Below are positions 44,901 to 61,288 of a stretch of DNA of 64,000 nucleotides, piece after piece. This stretch comes from Lysobacterales bacterium (GTDB lineage Bacteria > Pseudomonadota > Gammaproteobacteria > Xanthomonadales > SZUA-36), in NCBI GenBank assembly GCA_050118555.1, contig JASFKQ010000001.1:1464-65463 (forward strand), written 5' to 3'. The notes beneath the pieces were generated by a model, which was given only the letters and a program-made list of their open reading frames with translations, did not search any database and was not told the DNA's origin. The position numbers and the translations under genes are program-made. The first letter of the stretch is position 1, and the number at the start of each line of letters is the position of its first letter.

Positions 44901-47404
44901 CGATCGAAGAGGGAAGCATCATCGCCATCTTCCTGGAAGAGGCGAACGAGGTGCTGGAGCGCTGCGACACACTGTTGAATACCTGGCGCGACAAGCTCTC
45001 CGACCGCAAGCTGGTGCAAAACCTGCAACGCGAAATCCATACGTTCAAGGGCGGCGCGCGGATGGCCGGGCTAGAGGGGCTCGGCGACCTCAGTCACGCG
45101 ATGGAGACGCTGCTCGAACATATCGCCGCCGGCCGTCTGGAGGCGACCGTCCTGGCGGTGCAGGCACTGGAAGAAGGCTGCGACCGCCTGACCGTCTGGG
45201 TCGAGCAAATCCAGTCGGGCACGTTGCCGGAAACGGGCGACGCGCGCGCCCGGTTCGAACAGCGGGTGAAGGCGCTGCGGATGCCGGCGGCGGAGCCGGA
45301 AGAAGAACCGGCGGCGGAGCCGGTCGACATGCGTCCGGCGACACCGAAACCCGATTCTTCCCGCGAAGCGGAAGCCGGGGAGACGGCGGAAGTCCGGACC
45401 GAGGACACACCGGAAGCCGCACCGGAAGAACCGCCGGCGCCCGAACCGACCCGGCACAAGGCGCCCCGCCCGGCGGCGGCGCGAAAGCCCGGTCTCGGCG
45501 AAGAACCGGCACGGGAATTCCGGGAGATTACCGAGAGGACCTCGGCGGCTTCCGACGACGCCGGGGCCGGCGCGCAGATCCGGGTTGCCGCGGAACTCAT
45601 GGACAAGCTGGTCAACTACTCCGGCGAAATCAGCATCTACCGTTCGCGCCTCGAACAGCAACTCGGCACCGTCCGCTTCAACCTGAAGGAGGTGGACGCG
45701 ACCGTCCAGCGCCTGCGCGACCAGTTGCGCAAGATGGACATGGAAAGCGAGGCGCAGATGATGTCGCGCTACCAGAGCGCTTCTACGCAGGGCACATCGG
45801 AATTCGATCCGCTCGAGCTCGATCGCTTCTCCAACATGCAACAGCTCTCGCGGGCGCTCTCGGAAACCGTCAGCGACCTCGTGAACCTGCACGATATGCT
45901 CGACGATTCGGTGCGCCAGGCCGAAAGCCTGCTGACGCAGCAGTCCCGGGTCAGCAGCGAACTGCAGGAAGGTCTGATGCAGACGCGGATGACGCCGTTC
46001 GGCAGCGCCGCGCCGCGTCTGCGCCGCGTGGTTCGCGCCGCCGCCACCGAAACCGGCAAAAAGGCGCGCCTGCAACTGCGCATGGCCGGTTCCAGCGATC
46101 AGCTCGATCGCAACGTGCTGGAGCGCATCACCGCGCCGCTCGAGCACATGCTGCGCAATGCCGTGGCCCATGGGATCGAGGACCCGAAGGTCCGCCGCAA
46201 GCTGAAGAAACCCGAAGAGGGCAGCATCACAGTCACCGTGCAAGCCGAAGCGACAGAGTTCGTGATCCGTGTCCAGGACGACGGCAGCGGCATCAACCTG
46301 GACGCCGTCCGCAAGCGCGCAATCGAGCGCGGTATGATCAAGGCCGACGAGCGGGTCGATCCGCATCGACTGGTTCAGTTCATTCGCGAAAGCGGGTTCT
46401 CGACCGCGCAGACCGTGACCGGGCTGGCAGGCCGCGGCGTGGGCATGGACGTCGTGAACAGCGAGATCAAGCAGATCGGCGGTTCGATGGAAATCGACAC
46501 CGAGGCGGGCAAAGGCACCCGCTTCACGATCCGGATTCCGTTCAGCCTGGCGGTCATGCAGGCCATCGGCGTGACCGTCGGCGATCGTCCCTTCCAGATT
46601 CCGCTGAACAGCGTGGCGGGTGTTACCCGCATGAGCCCCTCGGAGTACGGCGCCCTGGTCAAAAGCGAGGCGCCGAGCTGCCATTTTGCGGGCGAAGACT
46701 ACCCGTTGCTCGAGCTCGAACCGTTGCTGGACGCTCCCACGCTACCGCTCGACAACGATAACGTGTCGCTGCTCCTGATCCGTACGGGCGATTACAAGGC
46801 GGCATTCCGCGTGTCGGCCCTGCAGGGCCACCAGGAAGTCGTCATCAAGCCGGTCGGACCGCAGATCAGCAGCATCCCCGGGATCCTGGGCGGCACCATT
46901 GCCGCGGACGGACAGGTGATGATCATCCTGGACATGGGCCCGCTGATCCGCCGCGGCCTGGAGCGCCCCATCCAGCCACCGGAACCCGCCCCGGCGCCGC
47001 GCGAGGAATCGCGCAAGCCGGTCGTCATGGTCGTCGACGATTCGATCACGATGCGCAAGGTGACTTCCCGCGTGCTGGAAAACCATTCGCTGGAGGTCAT
47101 GACGGCCCAGGACGGTCTGGACGCCGTCGAGAAGCTGCATGAACGCGTACCGGACCTGATGCTGCTGGACATCGAGATGCCACGGATGGACGGATACGAG
47201 TTGCTCGAGCACGTCCGGGCCGACGCGCGGCTCCGGCACGTACCGGTGGTCATGATCACGTCGCGCGCCGGGCAGAAGCACCGCAAGAAGGCAAAAGCGG
47301 CCGGCGCAAACGCCTACCTGACCAAACCGTACCAGGAACCCGAACTGGTCGAGCAAGTCAGTGAGATGCTGGGCATCGAACTCGTGCCGAGGAGGTCGGA
47401 CTGA
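41963..47404 (+). CDS. chpA: ChpA/PilL hybrid CheA-type histidine kinase (multi-Hpt, HATPase, CheW, C-terminal receiver)
   Basis: 1813 aa. Hpt motifs FHTLKGSGRMVG and IHTFKGGARMAG plus a degenerate AAHTLAGT. Acidic Pro/Glu-rich linkers. Kinase core LEHMLRNAVAHGIE...GRGVGMDVV. CheW-like region. REC domain VVMVVDDS...LLDIEMPRMDGYE...TKPY. Confidence 0.92.
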   Translation: MMLEGSNTSAAIGWVREDLDECLETIRENLEAFAEDPAQRDPLAAVQEELERLNLIFLTMEQRGASILTDEMIAVGGHMLHNGKANVEESLNALTDAIIVLPSYLDRLQAGHEDLPILLLPTLNELRATYDESLLSEGTLFAPDLDVIIPELSGSEADAIAASDFPAFARRVRSLYQGALLGWLKEQSKDSLLNPMQQVCRKLYIRLGRNELRRLWWIAEQVMQGLIDDSIDNDLALRRLFARLDLTLKAMTEGGEKGPASDTITALSRALLFYAAQARPGSKATDTLRKHFKLEELIPDRDALMRARGAVTGRDAGLFQSIGDAVREELSQVKDTLDMELRTGRIDAEQRAESRKSLQQLADTLRMLELPVPAHAVEELLPALEETKGATNMDLDSPLLALAQKLIEVESILNTHIQLLGEPVEEQAATDGLSLPPHEQRQILGRLLDECVSTLREVQDAIRERLDGNAEADFNTGLAQIAGALGVASQGEVAALTGKLGRALNAALAQPGDVPNLEALTDAVAALELYLAGCRDEQANSVRFLEVMHGRLEGLPEADADGGEVPETSITLPSRSREAPAPAEAREPAPSATGIDPAMLGIFLEEFDSVRSSLESQLKQWLEEPANQKALGEVRRAFHTLKGSGRMVGAAEIGEFAWRVEDLLNALIEKRIEFSPALGDTIVLATAALDPLRACLVNEPATLEPDAIQSLAAHIQKIGAGKRADVEELRNSLPDAFLAALAAEPEKAADARAEAEPVAAAAEDEDTDLEPERLERLLSGEEVDPTLRQLMIGEIQSYLGEFESFADGLASGQDQAVSPNLVRAAHTLAGTLSMAPLGQEGDVARALEDYLDNRLKTDRPVAAASSLPVQTALHRFHQRLFVLEEGAAETYPLEDERLLANLAGLAELEDSATDSRTEPTAQEERAETEERPATEAKAPASEPAAPEETSAAPEEQPETEEPAVAESEAAAPEPDGRHISIEEGSIIAIFLEEANEVLERCDTLLNTWRDKLSDRKLVQNLQREIHTFKGGARMAGLEGLGDLSHAMETLLEHIAAGRLEATVLAVQALEEGCDRLTVWVEQIQSGTLPETGDARARFEQRVKALRMPAAEPEEEPAAEPVDMRPATPKPDSSREAEAGETAEVRTEDTPEAAPEEPPAPEPTRHKAPRPAAARKPGLGEEPAREFREITERTSAASDDAGAGAQIRVAAELMDKLVNYSGEISIYRSRLEQQLGTVRFNLKEVDATVQRLRDQLRKMDMESEAQMMSRYQSASTQGTSEFDPLELDRFSNMQQLSRALSETVSDLVNLHDMLDDSVRQAESLLTQQSRVSSELQEGLMQTRMTPFGSAAPRLRRVVRAAATETGKKARLQLRMAGSSDQLDRNVLERITAPLEHMLRNAVAHGIEDPKVRRKLKKPEEGSITVTVQAEATEFVIRVQDDGSGINLDAVRKRAIERGMIKADERVDPHRLVQFIRESGFSTAQTVTGLAGRGVGMDVVNSEIKQIGGSMEIDTEAGKGTRFTIRIPFSLAVMQAIGVTVGDRPFQIPLNSVAGVTRMSPSEYGALVKSEAPSCHFAGEDYPLLELEPLLDAPTLPLDNDNVSLLLIRTGDYKAAFRVSALQGHQEVVIKPVGPQISSIPGILGGTIAADGQVMIILDMGPLIRRGLERPIQPPEPAPAPREESRKPVVMVVDDSITMRKVTSRVLENHSLEVMTAQDGLDAVEKLHERVPDLMLLDIEMPRMDGYELLEHVRADARLRHVPVVMITSRAGQKHRKKAKAAGANAYLTKPYQEPELVEQVSEMLGIELVPRRSD

Positions 47405-47405
47405 C

Positions 47406-47957
47406 ATGTCGAGACAGGTCTACAGCCGTAACCGGAACAGCACGGGGCGCAAACGGGTGTTGCGCGCCTCGGGCAAGAGCCCCGAACTGCACTGCATGGT
47501 GGTCCCCACGGATCCGGAGATCCTGCTGCTCCCGACCAGCGTGATGTGCGAGGTCGTCGACTACAAGGATATTGCACCGATCGAAGACGCACCCCCCTGG
47601 CTGATGGGACAGGTCCAGTGGGAAAACCGGCAGGTGCCCGTATTCAGCTTCAGCGGGCTCATCAACGGCAAGGATGTGCAGGCGCCCGGACCCCGGGCCA
47701 AGGTAATGATCATCAAGTCGCTCGCCGAATCCGGGCGGGTCCCCTACCTCGGGCTGCTGCTGGGCGACCTGCCGCGCCCGGTCAAGGTGAACGACGGGGA
47801 TCTCCAGGAAACCGGCGACGAGAAGAAGGCGATGGGCGTCTTCAGCCGCGTACGCATCGGCGACGAGGAGGACGCGATCATCCCGGACATCGACCGGCTG
47901 ACCCATTTGGTCACGCACGCGACCTACGGCGCGCTGCCGATTACCCAGTTGGACTAG
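47406..47957 (+). CDS. chpC: CheW-like protein ChpC
   Basis: 183 aa from ATG 47406, 1 nt after the chpA stop. CheW-type blocks (PPWLMGQVQWENRQVPVFSF; YLGLLLGDLP). Confidence 0.7.
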   Translation: MSRQVYSRNRNSTGRKRVLRASGKSPELHCMVVPTDPEILLLPTSVMCEVVDYKDIAPIEDAPPWLMGQVQWENRQVPVFSFSGLINGKDVQAPGPRAKVMIIKSLAESGRVPYLGLLLGDLPRPVKVNDGDLQETGDEKKAMGVFSRVRIGDEEDAIIPDIDRLTHLVTHATYGALPITQLD

Positions 47958-47995
47958 CCTGCATATCGCACCAGCCGGGTTTGGCTGGCTTCCCG
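47957..47995. repeat. 39-bp direct repeat, copy 1 (contains hairpin ccagcc-gggttt-ggctgg)
   Basis: gcctgcatatcgcaccagccgggtttggctggcttcccg. 36/39 identical to 48213-48251. Starts inside the chpC stop codon. Confidence 0.8.
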
Positions 47996-48212
47996 GAACA
48001 TTGAGTCCTGGATAATTCTCGGAATGTTGGAAGCAGATTCCAACGCTACCGCGCTCCTCCGCCCAACCCTATCCCGGCCCTGGCTGGTCCATGCACGCCT
48101 GCGCTTGGTTTTCCCTCAACCCGTAGCCCCGGCTACAGGTCTCGCTCCAAACCGGCGCCCAGACGCACCTGTCCTGCGCCATCATCCGGGATACTGATGC
48201 AATATGCAGGCT

Positions 48213-48251
48213 GCCTGCCTATCCCGCCAGCCGGGTTTGGCTGGCTTCCCG
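48213..48251. repeat. 39-bp direct repeat, copy 2
   Basis: gcctgcctatcccgccagccgggtttggctggcttcccg. Immediately preceded (48198-48211) by an inverted copy of its own first 14 nt. Confidence 0.8.
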
Positions 48252-48356
48252 CGTAGGAGCCCGCTCTGCGGGCGATTGAAAGATCGCAACCCACACCTGA
48301 GCGCGCGATGCACGTGATGCCGGATACTGTTTCGCCCGCAGAGCGGGCTCCTACGC
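48251..48356. repeat. REP-like inverted pair: perfect 25-bp arms gcgtaggagcccgctctgcgggcga separated by 56 nt
   Basis: 48251-48275 is the exact reverse complement of 48332-48356. Each arm carries the gcccgc-tct-gcgggc mini-hairpin. The motif is shared with 28856-28874. Confidence 0.85.
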
Positions 48357-58125: not shown

Positions 58126-58689
58126 ATGACGAAGCTCGTTGCCGGCATTCTGCTGTGGAGTCTGACACACCTCCTTCCGTCTGCTGCCCCCGGCCTGCGA
58201 GGGCGGCTGGTCTCCCGGCTGGGTGAAAACCCGTACAAGGGTATCTTCGCCCTGCTGACGGTCCTGGCCATCTACCTCATCATCAGCGGCTGGAAGTCGA
58301 CGGTGCCCGAGCTCGTCTACGTGCCTCCTGTGTGGGGACGGCACGTAACGGCACTGTTGGTGCTGTTTGCTTTCATCCTGTTCTTCGCGCCCTACCCACC
58401 CAACAACATCAAGCGCCTCCTGCGTCATCCGCAACTGACCGGCGTGGCGCTGTGGGGCGTGGGACACCTGCTCGCCAACGGCGAGGGCCGTTCCATCGTT
58501 CTGTTCGCCGGCATGGCGGTCTGGGCCATCGTGGAAATGTTCCTGATCAACCGGCGCGAAGGCGCCTGGTCCCGTCCGTCGCCCGCACCGGTCCGTAACG
58601 ACGTGTTCCTGGTGGTGGGCGCCATCGTCGCCTACGTCGCGGTGGCTTCAGCCCACCAATGGCTTTTTGGCTTTTCACCCTTTGCATGA
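58126..58689 (+). CDS. NnrU-family membrane protein
   Basis: 187 aa, 5 TM helices. Opening MTKLVAGILLWSLTHLLPS...LGENPYKGIFALL is typical of NnrU. Confidence 0.7.
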   Translation: MTKLVAGILLWSLTHLLPSAAPGLRGRLVSRLGENPYKGIFALLTVLAIYLIISGWKSTVPELVYVPPVWGRHVTALLVLFAFILFFAPYPPNNIKRLLRHPQLTGVALWGVGHLLANGEGRSIVLFAGMAVWAIVEMFLINRREGAWSRPSPAPVRNDVFLVVGAIVAYVAVASAHQWLFGFSPFA

Positions 58690-58704
58690 CCTGAGGAGAA
58701 ACAC

Positions 58705-59073
58705 ATGATCGGATACGTGACACTGGGTACCAATGACCTGGAACGGGCCGTGGCCTTTTACGACGAACTGCTGACGCTGGTGGGCGCCAAACGGTTCATG
58801 GAGGATCCGGGCCATTTCGTCGCCTGGGCAACCGGGCCGAACTCTCCCGGCCTGTCGGTAACGATTCCCTTCGACGGGAATCCCGCAACCGTCGGCAACG
58901 GGACCATGGTCGCGCTGATGGTCCAAAGCAAGGAAAAGGTGCACGAAGTGTACGATCGGGCCATCGCTCTCGGGGGCAAGGACGAGGGCCCCGCCGGGCC
59001 CCGTTCCGACGGGTTCTACGCCGGCTACTTCCGCGACCTGGACGGCAACAAGCTGAACGTGTTTTGTACATAG
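58705..59073 (+). CDS. VOC (glyoxalase-fold) family protein
   Basis: MIGYVTLGTNDLERAVAFYDELL... and YFRDLDGNKLNVF. GAGGAG upstream of the start. Confidence 0.75.
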   Translation: MIGYVTLGTNDLERAVAFYDELLTLVGAKRFMEDPGHFVAWATGPNSPGLSVTIPFDGNPATVGNGTMVALMVQSKEKVHEVYDRAIALGGKDEGPAGPRSDGFYAGYFRDLDGNKLNVFCT

Positions 59074-59338
59074 GGCCTGTCAACACGGCACGAGCCCACG
59101 CTGTTGCGACTGAAACAGCGCCAAACAGGGTGCAAAGAGTCATTTTTGGAGGCTCCACGGGAACAACGCGCTGCTCGGAGTGGCGCTGTTTCAGCCTCAA
59201 CCCTTCGGGACGCGGCCATATTTCCCGCTGGCGGCGTTATCACTCGCTCATGTAGCGGTGCTACACCGCGCTCGTTCTGCCTTGTCAGTTGAAAATATGG
59301 CCCGCGGCAGCGCGGGCTCGCACCGTGTTAACAGGCCC
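59073..59338 (-). repeat. 266-nt inverted-repeat element folding as a three-way junction (structured-RNA or MITE-like candidate)
   Basis: Outer stem 59073-59103 / 59308-59338 (27/31 bp). Inner stems 59110-59123 / 59181-59194 (14/14) and 59211-59225 / 59291-59306 (14 bp, 1 bulge, 1 mismatch). All 5 mismatches are C-A on the + strand, which means G-U on the - strand. Confidence 0.75.
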
Positions 59339-59376
59339 TTGCCGGATTGACACTGCGACACCTGGCCCGGTACGGG

Positions 59377-59865
59377 CTAGGCCAGCAAACGGCCGAGTAT
59401 CCCGCCGCTCAGGCTCCACGAGGCCAGGTTGAAGCACCAGAGATACACGGCCCACGCCAACCAGGGCCCCAGCAGCCACGCGGCCTGTTCCGAAATTCCT
59501 CGGAACACCACAAACGTCCAGCCGGCCGCGCCCAGTGATACGCTCCACAGCGCCCAGGCCCAGCCGATCCTGTTGAGGCCGAAAAAGAGTGCCGACCAGG
59601 AAACGGCGAGAACCAGCAACAGCAGCCACCAGGCGAGGGCGGTCCGGCGGCTGGCGTGACCCGTCAGCCAGACGGCCCACGCAGACACGGCGAGCGAGGC
59701 GAACGCAATTGCGCCCAGCAGCCCGAACAGCCAGGCGGGCGCCGTCCAGGACGGCTTGACCAGCTTGACGTAGTACCACTCGCCACCCGTGAAACTTCCT
59801 GCAATGACGGAGGCTGCGATCACGATCAGCAACATGACGGCCAGGGATCCATACCGGCTAGACAC
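59377..59865 (-). CDS. tspO: TspO/MBR (tryptophan-rich sensory protein) family
   Basis: 162 aa, 5 TM helices, Trp-rich (KPSWTAPAWLFGLLGAIAFA...WSALFFGL...). Confidence 0.85.
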   Translation of the reverse strand: MSSRYGSLAVMLLIVIAASVIAGSFTGGEWYYVKLVKPSWTAPAWLFGLLGAIAFASLAVSAWAVWLTGHASRRTALAWWLLLLVLAVSWSALFFGLNRIGWAWALWSVSLGAAGWTFVVFRGISEQAAWLLGPWLAWAVYLWCFNLASWSLSGGILGRLLA

Positions 59866-59995
59866 TGCACATCTCCTTTGAAAATAGCTTGCCCACTTGA
59901 CTCTCAGACCTTGTCGCCTGCGGGCGGTTACAAACCGGCCGCTGCGTTCACCACCTTAATCAACCCGGGAGCCGTGTTCCAGCCGCCCGGCGCCA

Positions 59996-61288
59996 CTATC
60001 CCAGGGTATGCAGCGCTTCGTCCAGGGCTTCCAGCAGCATGTCGACGTTCTGCCGCGAAAAGACCAGCGGCGGGCGGATCTTGATGACGTTGCCGAGCGG
60101 GCCGGTCGTGCCGAGCAACACCCCCTTGTCCTTCAGCCGTTCCCTGACCAGGCGCGCCCCGTCGCCGGCCGGCTCGCGGGTGGCGCGATCTTCGACCAGT
60201 TCCACGCCATAGAATAGCCCCTTGCCCCGAACATCCCCGACGCGGTCGTGCGTCGCGGCCAGGCTGTTCAGGCCCTGCCCGAGGTAGGCGCCGGTGTCCC
60301 GGGCATTCTGCAGGATGCCTTCCTCCTCGATTGCATCCAGCACCGCCAGCCCCACCGCGGCGGACACGGGGTTGCCGCCAAAGGTGTTGAAGTAATCGAA
60401 CCGGCGGGCGAAGTCGGCGGCGATTTCGGGAGTGGTCACCACAGCAGCCAGCGGATGACCGTCCCCCAGCGGCTTGCCCATGGTCACGATATCCGGCACA
60501 ACCCCGGAATCCTGGAATCCCCAGTAATGGTCACCCAGCCGGCAGAGCCCTGATTGTACCTCGTCGGCCACCGCGAGGCCGCCGGCCGAGTGTACGCTGC
60601 GATAGGCGGTCTCCAGGTAGCCTTCCGGCGCCGTCAGAACGCCATTGGAGCTGAAGATGTTATCGACCATGAACATTGCCGGCGCCACTCCGCGGTCCGC
60701 CAGGGCCTCGACCGCAGCTCCGGCCAGGGCCCCGAATTTCGGACCGGCGTCCCCGTCCTCGCGCCCGAAGCTGCCCCGGTAGCCATTGGGCGGCTCGATG
60801 GCCTCGAGCCAGCCGGGCCGGTCACTGGCCGGATACTCCGCGGTGGAAAGCGCCGACACAACCATCGAATTTCCATGGTAGGCGTGTTCGGTCACGATCG
60901 CGCCCTCGTGGCCGGTGACGGTCCGGGCGATGCGAAAAGCGAGGTCATTGGCCTCGGTTCCGGTACACACGAACATGCACACACTCAGGTCGCCCGGCAA
61001 CGTCCCCCCCAGGCGCTCGGCATAGCGAACGACGTTTTCGTGCAGGTAACGCGTGTGCGTGTTGAGCGTCGATGCCTGCCGGCAAAGCGCCTCGACCACG
61101 CGGGGGTGACAGTGTCCGACAGAGGCGACGTTGTTGTAACAGTCCAGATAATGACGCCCGTCCGCATCCCAGAGCCAGACACCCTGACCACGGACGAGGT
61201 GGACCGGCTGGTCGTAAAACAGGCGGTAAGCGGGGCCCATCGAACGGTCGCGGCGCGTCATCAGATTGCGCTGTTCCGGGCTGGTCAT
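59996..61288 (-). CDS. Class-III (AGXT2-like) PLP-dependent aminotransferase or phospho-lyase
   Basis: 430 aa from ATG 61288 (GAGGA upstream). LVRGQGVWLWDADGRHYLDCYNNVASVGHCHP, DEVQSGLCRLG and the lysine context IVTMGKPLG. Confidence 0.8.
   Translation of the reverse strand: MTSPEQRNLMTRRDRSMGPAYRLFYDQPVHLVRGQGVWLWDADGRHYLDCYNNVASVGHCHPRVVEALCRQASTLNTHTRYLHENVVRYAERLGGTLPGDLSVCMFVCTGTEANDLAFRIARTVTGHEGAIVTEHAYHGNSMVVSALSTAEYPASDRPGWLEAIEPPNGYRGSFGREDGDAGPKFGALAGAAVEALADRGVAPAMFMVDNIFSSNGVLTAPEGYLETAYRSVHSAGGLAVADEVQSGLCRLGDHYWGFQDSGVVPDIVTMGKPLGDGHPLAAVVTTPEIAADFARRFDYFNTFGGNPVSAAVGLAVLDAIEEEGILQNARDTGAYLGQGLNSLAATHDRVGDVRGKGLFYGVELVEDRATREPAGDGARLVRERLKDKGVLLGTTGPLGNVIKIRPPLVFSRQNVDMLLEALDEALHTLG

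Follow-up and report, generated by a model that had tools for sequence, protein, structure and literature searches.

A palindromic element of 266 nt was found at positions 59073-59338 of a 64,000-nucleotide stretch of DNA from an uncultured Lysobacterales bacterium (contig JASFKQ010000001.1; the whole stretch is referred to here as the window), in the spacer between a gene of the VOC/glyoxalase family and the convergent gene tspO. The element is probably a non-autonomous DNA transposon resembling the MITEs (miniature transposable elements with inverted repeats), belonging to a low-copy family and inserted at the stop codon of the VOC gene. Judged from comparisons among related sequences, it stands out as a discrete insertion with exact boundaries, inverted termini and TA flanks, with its terminus occurring at other loci and its structure not conserved; the type of transposase, the duplication of TA (one copy of which now reads TT) and any effect at the RNA level are parts of this reading that we infer.

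Orthologous loci were reached through TspO homologues and the members of the same 90%-identity clusters. The element is present in the window and in a sister clade (L010/L012, L011, L015 and L023, and partly L014), of which L010 is 93.7% identical to the window across 5.5 kb. The insertion is polymorphic: the site is filled in the window, L010/L011, L015 and L023, and it is empty at L005 (TspO 86% identical), where tspO and VOC overlap by 4 nt, and at both L006 (TspO 91% identical) and L016 (a member of the same 90% cluster), where 14 nt separate the two genes. The spacers at two further loci hold other repeats. At L008 (TspO 73% identical) a spacer of 98 nt contains a solo terminus of another repeat family, and at L007 (TspO 72% identical) a spacer of about 300 nt contains another, distinct palindromic element, which has perfect termini of 21 nt and is flanked left and right by CTAG. 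The VOC gene sits between nnrU and tspO also in relatives lacking the element.

The empty sites read ...TTCTGCATAGCCGGGGAC..., and the window reads ...TTTTGTACATA followed by the element (GGGCCTGTC...GACAGGCCC) and then by TTGCCGGATTGAC.... Excising 59073-59340, which is the element plus 2 nt, yields TGTACATA/GCCGGATT and matches the empty sites of L006 and L016 (TGCATA/GCCGGGG, with ATA/GCCGG shared). Since excision restores ATA/GCCGG, the element is a discrete insert with TA as its left flank and TT as its right flank. The L010 clade shares the TA/TT flanks of the window, and L014, which is possibly a chimera, has TA/TA. The dinucleotide TA, which makes up 1.6% of the dinucleotides in the window, stands in front of the solo terminus at the unrelated locus L009/L018/L020 as well. 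A single TA is found at the junction of the L006 and L016 empty sites, and the presumed duplication, which spans 2 bp only and includes one mismatch, is suggestive only.

The TAG stop codon of the VOC gene (59071-59073) consists of the flanking TA and the first G of the element. The sequence-only reading had placed the start of the element at the final base of this codon and its end 38 nt from tspO, and both placements agree with the annotation, as VOC ends at 59073 in the list of open reading frames (ORFs) and the tspO stop codon occupies 59377-59379. The VOC protein has 122 amino acids (ending NVFCT) wherever the element is present and 125 amino acids where it is absent (ending NVFCMAES or NVFCIAGD in L005, L006 and L008, compared with 59058-59073 of the window). 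A 2-nt indel (TGCATA versus TGTACATA) moves the VOC frame onto the TAG used as insertion site, and the reconstructed pre-insertion sequence, TGT ACA TAG CCG..., already stops VOC at the identical TAG. We infer that the insertion hit the TA of this stop codon and that, as the element starts with G, TAG was thereby regenerated.

Insertion into this TA would date to the ancestor that the window lineage shares with the sister clade, and would have pushed the convergent VOC and tspO genes about 290 bp apart. The element would have been mobilized in trans, by a DDE transposase able to bind its termini and to duplicate TA, either of the IS630/Tc1-mariner type or a relative of the IS5 group. Some IS5-group elements likewise use TA-containing targets, so that the TA does not identify the superfamily. 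The long hairpins would be a normal by-product of building an element from inverted repeats. After insertion, passive transcription would make the element the 3' end of tspO and/or VOC, and transcripts may be ended or stabilized by its stems, among which is a terminator-like hairpin on the tspO strand.

The element has a GC content of about 60% and is closed by 31-nt inverted termini with two long hairpins inside (Table 1). The outer arms, the two long hairpins and the small hairpin described in the sequence-only reading were all found at the positions given there. The repeat finder lengthens the outer arms to 37 nt with 84% complementarity (59072-59108 / 59303-59339) and delimits hairpin 3 at 59214-59230 / 59286-59302 (82% complementary), and the core of hairpin 1, 59110-59123 / 59181-59194, is paired at 14 of 14 positions. 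The small hairpin within hairpin 3 reads tgtagc-ggt-gctaca (59251-59265). The helices of the proposed three-way junction are confirmed, although the minimum-energy fold adds the hairpin at 59201-59209 and makes the junction strictly a four-way one. Folding of the element is far beyond chance and stronger on the minus strand: the minus-strand fold that the sequence-only reading had called for reaches -159.4 kcal/mol (z = -10.3), compared with -142.2 kcal/mol (z = -6.4) on the plus strand, and for neither strand was any of 200 shuffles as good. Six-frame translations of the element, used as a single query against 5.8 billion proteins, gave no homologue at E<=1 and no mis-called ORFs, and no gene was called inside the element on any contig.

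Table 1. Features of the element and its surroundings in the window
Feature	Position	Strand	Basis or remark
VOC/glyoxalase-family gene, 122 amino acids	58705-59073	+	ORF list; Pfam PF00903
Left flanking TA, putative target dinucleotide	59071-59072	.	precedes GGGCCTGTCAAC in window and L010
Left terminal inverted repeat GGGCCTGTCAACACGGCACGAGCCCACGCTG	59073-59103	.	inverted-repeat finder
Hairpin 1	arms 59103-59123 / 59181-59201, 57-nt loop	.	90% complementary (repeat finder)
Minor 3-bp hairpin ccc-ttc-ggg at junction	59201-59209		in folds of both strands
Hairpin 3	59211-59306, arms about 59212-59230 / 59286-59305	.	encloses small hairpin 59251-59265
Terminator-like hairpin GCCCGCG-CUGC-CGCGGGC with tail CAUAUUUUCA	59290-59317	-	consensus scan
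Right terminal inverted repeat CAGCGCGGGCTCGCACCGTGTTAACAGGCCC	59308-59338	.	27/31 complementary to left terminus
Right flanking TT, read as decayed second TA copy	59339-59340	.	excision rebuilds empty site
tspO (TspO/MBR family)	59377-59865	-	convergent with VOC; ORF list, Pfam, homologues; start used by gene callers 59835

Copies of the element were sought with exact scans using a 21-mer of the terminus as query, which diverged termini would escape. The scan of the metagenome collection found two loci only, the sister locus L010 and L009. At L009, TTAGGGCCTGTCAACACGGCACGAGCC lies directly after the last sense codon of a 914-aa gene of the DUF6701 family with no right arm, and the match to window 59071-59096 is perfect (26/26), covering TA and the first 24 bases of the left terminus. 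This solo terminus occurs in three contigs of that organism (L009, L018 and L020), one of them of 44.8 kb. A full copy at the same locus, sought via PqiA homologues, was not found, as these led to the solo terminus only, in the same three contigs; the nearest other PqiA homologue (L021, 88%) has different synteny, so that no empty site can be defined. The remaining partial copy is in L014, an 891-bp contig from ENA that carries VOC and the element. Up to 59283, which is the left four-fifths of the element, L014 differs from the window at 2 of 211 positions, whereas the last 55 nt are 72% identical (15 differences) and are followed by an unrelated flank; L014:1-105 and L014:822-891 are unrelated to the nnrU and tspO flanks. 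Either two copies have truly recombined in L014 or the contig is an assembly chimera; in both cases a second, diverged copy is implied. Four independent contigs of metagenomes and metagenome-assembled genomes (L003, L013, L015 and L022) also end within or just beside the element, as is usual when assemblies are interrupted by repeats or strain variation. Sequence identical to that of the window organism was observed in several metagenomes.

The element and its flanks show differing extents of divergence. Between the window and L010, the element differs at 4 of 238 positions (1.7%), compared with 321 of 5560 in the flanks overall, 25 of 366 in VOC (20 of 122 at its third codon positions) and 3-11% in other spacers. 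Of the 266-nt windows along the alignment, 1% are as similar as the element, and every one of these overlaps it; ordinary divergence returns 3 nt to its left and 22 nt to its right. Within the sister clade, on the other hand, the element shows 2-4 substitutions, the 28-nt indel described below and the diverged right end of L014, against 0-2 of 366 differences in VOC and 2 of 590 in the tspO region (L023 versus L010). On these comparisons the genealogy of the element is decoupled from that of its flanks, with about 2% divergence versus 6-16% between clades and a variability at least equal to that of the flanks within a clade. Constraint together with vertical descent predicts far less variation within than between clades; as this was not seen, the decoupling may be read as conversion between copies, or as renewed invasion out of a common pool, either of which requires other copies. 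Horizontal replacement by homologous recombination is unlikely given how close to the element divergence resumes on both sides.

Several observations weigh against a mobile element. The right copy of the presumed duplication is TT rather than TA. The terminus occurs in the window only at the two ends of the element itself, no second copy was found there or in about 60 kb of related contigs, and one full-length locus was found overall. The 21-mer gave nothing real in 185,579 representative genomes, where a single match inside a coding region with no second arm was judged to be chance, and zero matches in viral contigs; no insertion sequence (IS) or transposase gene with matching termini was found by exact 21-mer in the genome, metagenome and viral collections. 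The low divergence between clades could alternatively reflect purifying selection. Finally, transition mismatches in the long helices common to the folds of both strands favor G-U pairs on the minus strand by 7:0, or 7:2 with the outer-stem extension, and a double-strand cut-and-paste element predicts no such preference. The sequence-only reading had held that multiple dispersed, near-identical copies with target-site duplications and mismatches free of strand bias would mark the element as a MITE; much of this pattern was found, except that the copies are few and the strand bias persists.

Two further searches gave no additional copy. A looser 18-mer search of the viral collection returned L017:4199-4216, where TAGGGCCTGTCAACACGA stands right after the last sense codon of an ORF with a TAG stop; this match has no partner arm, is within chance expectation for an 18-mer by our estimate, and was not accepted as a copy of the family, although its position again fits the stop-codon TA pattern. 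A blastn search of the plasmid collection with the element gave no match.

The strand bias bears on the reading that the element is primarily a functional structured RNA of the minus strand, acting as a terminator, a stabilizer or the source of a small RNA (sRNA) in the 3' untranslated region (UTR) of tspO, or as an independent sRNA, in which selection tolerates only transitions compatible with G-U pairing. Such a function is compatible with a mobile origin through exaptation. The non-Watson-Crick positions in the delimited stems are 59081/59330, 59089/59322, 59090/59321, 59098/59313 and 59224/59292. All five are C-A or A-C on the plus strand and hence G-U on the minus strand, as the sequence-only reading had stated, and a sixth is found at 59109/59195. 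The bias is real, with one caveat: a 6-bp extension of the outer stem (59103-59108 / 59303-59308) contains two plus-strand T-G pairs (59104/59307 and 59105/59306), so that the claim that all mismatches are of the minus-strand type depends on the stem end chosen. Changes among the sequences that are compatible with wobble pairing occur only at 59328 (in L015, again of the minus-strand G-U type) and at 59330, which is A in the window alone and G in all four other sequences.

As a control, 84 transitions in the flanks were polarized with L005 as outgroup, of which 38 are of the minus-strand G-U type and 46 of the opposite type; the difference between element and flanks has a Fisher p of about 0.004-0.03 (broader counts). 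Since the flanks lean the other way, a general mutation bias does not explain the G-U pattern, and a replication-strand mutation bias is not supported on the same grounds together with a plus-strand GC skew of only -0.02. Selection acting on tspO read-through transcripts, or on DNA in single-stranded form, could underlie the pattern. Alternatively, the bias could be characteristic of such families of repeats, because an unrelated palindromic element of this genome (family B, described below) is likewise asymmetric, folding to -135 versus -101 kcal/mol on its two strands, and asymmetry may thus be common in repeats of this kind.

Besides the strand bias, which falls to 7:2 once the outer stem is extended, the minus strand folds 17 kcal/mol better than the plus strand, the element diverges less than its flanks between clades (1.7% versus 6.3%) and a terminator-like hairpin with a U-rich tail lies on the minus strand; all of these speak for the structured RNA. 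The terminator-like hairpin (59317-59300, seven GC pairs) is located 60-87 nt downstream of the tspO stop, and it competes both with the outer stem and with hairpin 3. The region has two terminator-like sites, a number in line with the 1.8 that shuffles predict, and neither strand of the outer stem carries a U run.

The remaining evidence argues against a conserved RNA. The nearest relatives lack the element and have no spacer at all. Pair changes were counted among four distinct sequences on the minus-strand minimum-energy structure, and none of the 105 pairs was altered on both sides, a count of low power because the sequences are few and close. In the sister clade four transversions break pairs, one in the small hairpin (G59252T), one in hairpin 3 (A59295T) and one outer-stem pair each by G59315C and T59318A, and a 28-nt deletion (59276-59303, in L010/L011) leaves hairpin 3 without its 3' arm and truncates the terminator-like hairpin. 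Helix 6, in hairpin 1, shows zero variation among the four sequences. Conservation of the loops matches that of the stems, a picture of youth more than of structural constraint, and in the sister clade the element's rate of variation is no lower than that of its flanks. A consensus scan of 58600-60000 found no sigma-70-like promoter site. A search of the whole window against Rfam 15 at gathering thresholds found nothing at the element, and at E<=10 the best matches in 58900-59500 scored 12-16 bits (E 0.6 to 8), far under gathering scores. The sole match in the window at gathering thresholds is located elsewhere and is the aptamer of an SAH (S-adenosylhomocysteine) riboswitch (RF01057; 25816-25898, minus strand), with 55.8 bits against a gathering score of 37.

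The sequence-only reading had proposed a tspO 3'-UTR structure or an independent RNA. The first part keeps its footing in the location at the 3' end of tspO, the strand asymmetry and the terminator-like hairpin on the minus strand. The second is not supported, whether as an independent or as a conserved structured RNA, in view of the missing Rfam family, promoter-like site and compensatory changes, the pair-breaking changes and the absence from the nearest relatives. A primarily functional RNA is considered unlikely, and the strand bias, the chief support for the RNA idea, is the reason for giving it some weight. The transposon-like element may have a secondary role as a tspO 3'-end structure, given a G-U bias that background mutation does not explain.

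There is a slim chance that both ideas combine in a mobile structured-RNA module, in which the transposon carries an RNA of about 270 nt with multiple helices, transcribed off the tspO strand and maintained because selection favors it. Such a module would explain the minus-strand G-U bias as well as the four- to ten-fold lower divergence of the element compared with its flanks, and it would be a captured tspO 3'-UTR regulator or sRNA precursor spreading between related lineages via stop-codon TA.

Movement or maintenance through single-stranded DNA, with the hairpins of one strand being recognized as in IS200/IS605-derived palindromes or REP/RAYT systems, would account for strand-specific mismatches compatible with G-T pairing. 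The folding asymmetry persists with DNA parameters (-82.5 kcal/mol on the minus strand versus -72.2 on the plus strand), and a REP-like perfect palindrome at 48251-48356 points to the possible existence of systems of this type here. However, IS200/IS605-type elements and REPs are not known to have long terminal inverted repeats or to make target duplications, whereas the element has termini of 31-37 nt and TA flanks that rebuild the empty site, and no Y1 (HUH) transposase gene was seen nearby; we regard this mode as very unlikely. A local, non-mobile and functionless palindrome, made for example by template switching or inverted duplication with the other matches being unrelated, would fit the one full copy known and the highly variable tspO-VOC spacer of the relatives (overlap, 14, 98 and about 300 nt), but is likewise very unlikely in the face of the 26/26 left end including TA at an unrelated locus in three contigs, the diverged right end on another flank in L014, the exact boundaries that rebuild the empty site, and 266 nt dissimilar to their surroundings for which duplication cannot account.

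Three known classes were considered and rejected. An integron attC site, with VOC as the cassette, does not agree with the length of the element (266 bp versus 57-141 bp) or with the stable position of VOC between nnrU and tspO, and its candidate cores (TGTCAAC and GTTAACA/GTTGACA) deviate from the RYYYAAC / GTTRRRY consensus. A miniature element derived from Tn3 (considered because of a GGG... start and a CACGCT motif) is contradicted by the 5-bp flanks ACATA and TTGCC, which do not match. Membership in REP/BIME is not compatible with a unit of 266 nt bearing termini of 31 nt and TA on its flanks, of which one copy occurs in 64 kb.

Other palindromic repeats were observed in the window and in the tspO-VOC spacer of relatives. 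The family B element (47956-48212, about 256 nt, with 19-nt termini) starts at the TAG stop of the ORF 47361..47957; its first 39 nt recur right after it with 92% identity, at 48213-48251, and the REP-like perfect 25-nt inverted repeat GCGTAGGAGCCCGCTCTGCGGGCGA comes next at 48251-48356, all three lying between one convergent gene pair. The element in the spacer of L007 is a full family B element (L007:2040-2292) that is 87.7% identical to the window copy over 154 nt, and the 28-nt solo terminus of L008 (L008:562-589) also belongs to family B. The tspO-VOC spacer has thus been invaded repeatedly by different palindromic elements, and the gathering of palindromic repeats in convergent spacers is a feature of this genome. 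Family B is similar to the 59073-59338 element in its size, in the G right after a stop-codon TA, in its occurrence in convergent spacers including tspO-VOC and in having solo termini. The two differ in their termini, those of family B being 19-21 nt, and have zero sequence similarity.

Prokaryotic MITEs are defined in PMC10969869 as elements of less than 500 bp with no coding capacity, terminal inverted repeats and stable stem-loop transcripts; direct repeats from target-site duplication, insertion polymorphism, several dispersed copies and a related autonomous IS with matching termini are further marks of the class. The element shares with the MITEs reviewed there, such as QMITE1/2 of Coxiella and MITEAba12, a non-coding length below 500 bp, termini of about 30 bp, a putative short flanking repeat of the kind that decays with age, an intergenic or gene-end position and very stable predicted stem-loop transcripts; the copy number of MITEs can go down to one per genome. 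Within that description (PMC10969869), the element fits in size, termini, stem-loop transcripts and insertion polymorphism. It is unlike MITEs in being GC-rich rather than AT-rich, in having two long internal hairpins between its termini, and in being represented by one full copy plus fragments with no cognate IS found by exact 21-mer.

Correia elements (CREE) are small palindromes with termini of about 26 bp that are inserted at TA. ERIC/IRU and REP/BIME sequences are imperfect palindromes found in transcribed and often convergent spacers, where 3' stem-loops stabilize the upstream mRNA. The element differs from CREE, which are AT-rich, 100-155 bp long and number in the hundreds, and which carry an IHF site and ends that form promoters; none of these features was seen here, and there is no sequence similarity to CREE. 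REPs are 20-40 nt long, very numerous, not known to make target duplications and dependent on RAYT, and ERIC sequences are 127 bp long. CREE of Neisseria lie beside or between genes and are co-transcribed, and their hairpins act on the mRNA via RNase III, as described in PMC2649163. By analogy, the element appears to resemble both the Correia and the ERIC/REP sequences as a co-transcribed gene-end palindrome, yet it belongs to neither family.

The element is thus most likely an ordinary kind of bacterial repeat and a new low-copy MITE-like example rather than a new RNA gene. This reading matters mainly for annotation, as it accounts for the hairpins, the shortened C-terminus of VOC and the breaks in metagenome contigs, and it cautions that fold energy alone is insufficient for calling an RNA gene. 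Two observations would have broader interest once borne out by complete genomes: the history of the element is decoupled from that of its flanks, suggesting conversion between copies or re-invasion, and two unrelated palindromic families of this GC-rich genome both begin with G and both lie on a stop-codon TA. A G start on the TA of a stop codon would regenerate TAG, making gene ends safe landing sites for such elements.

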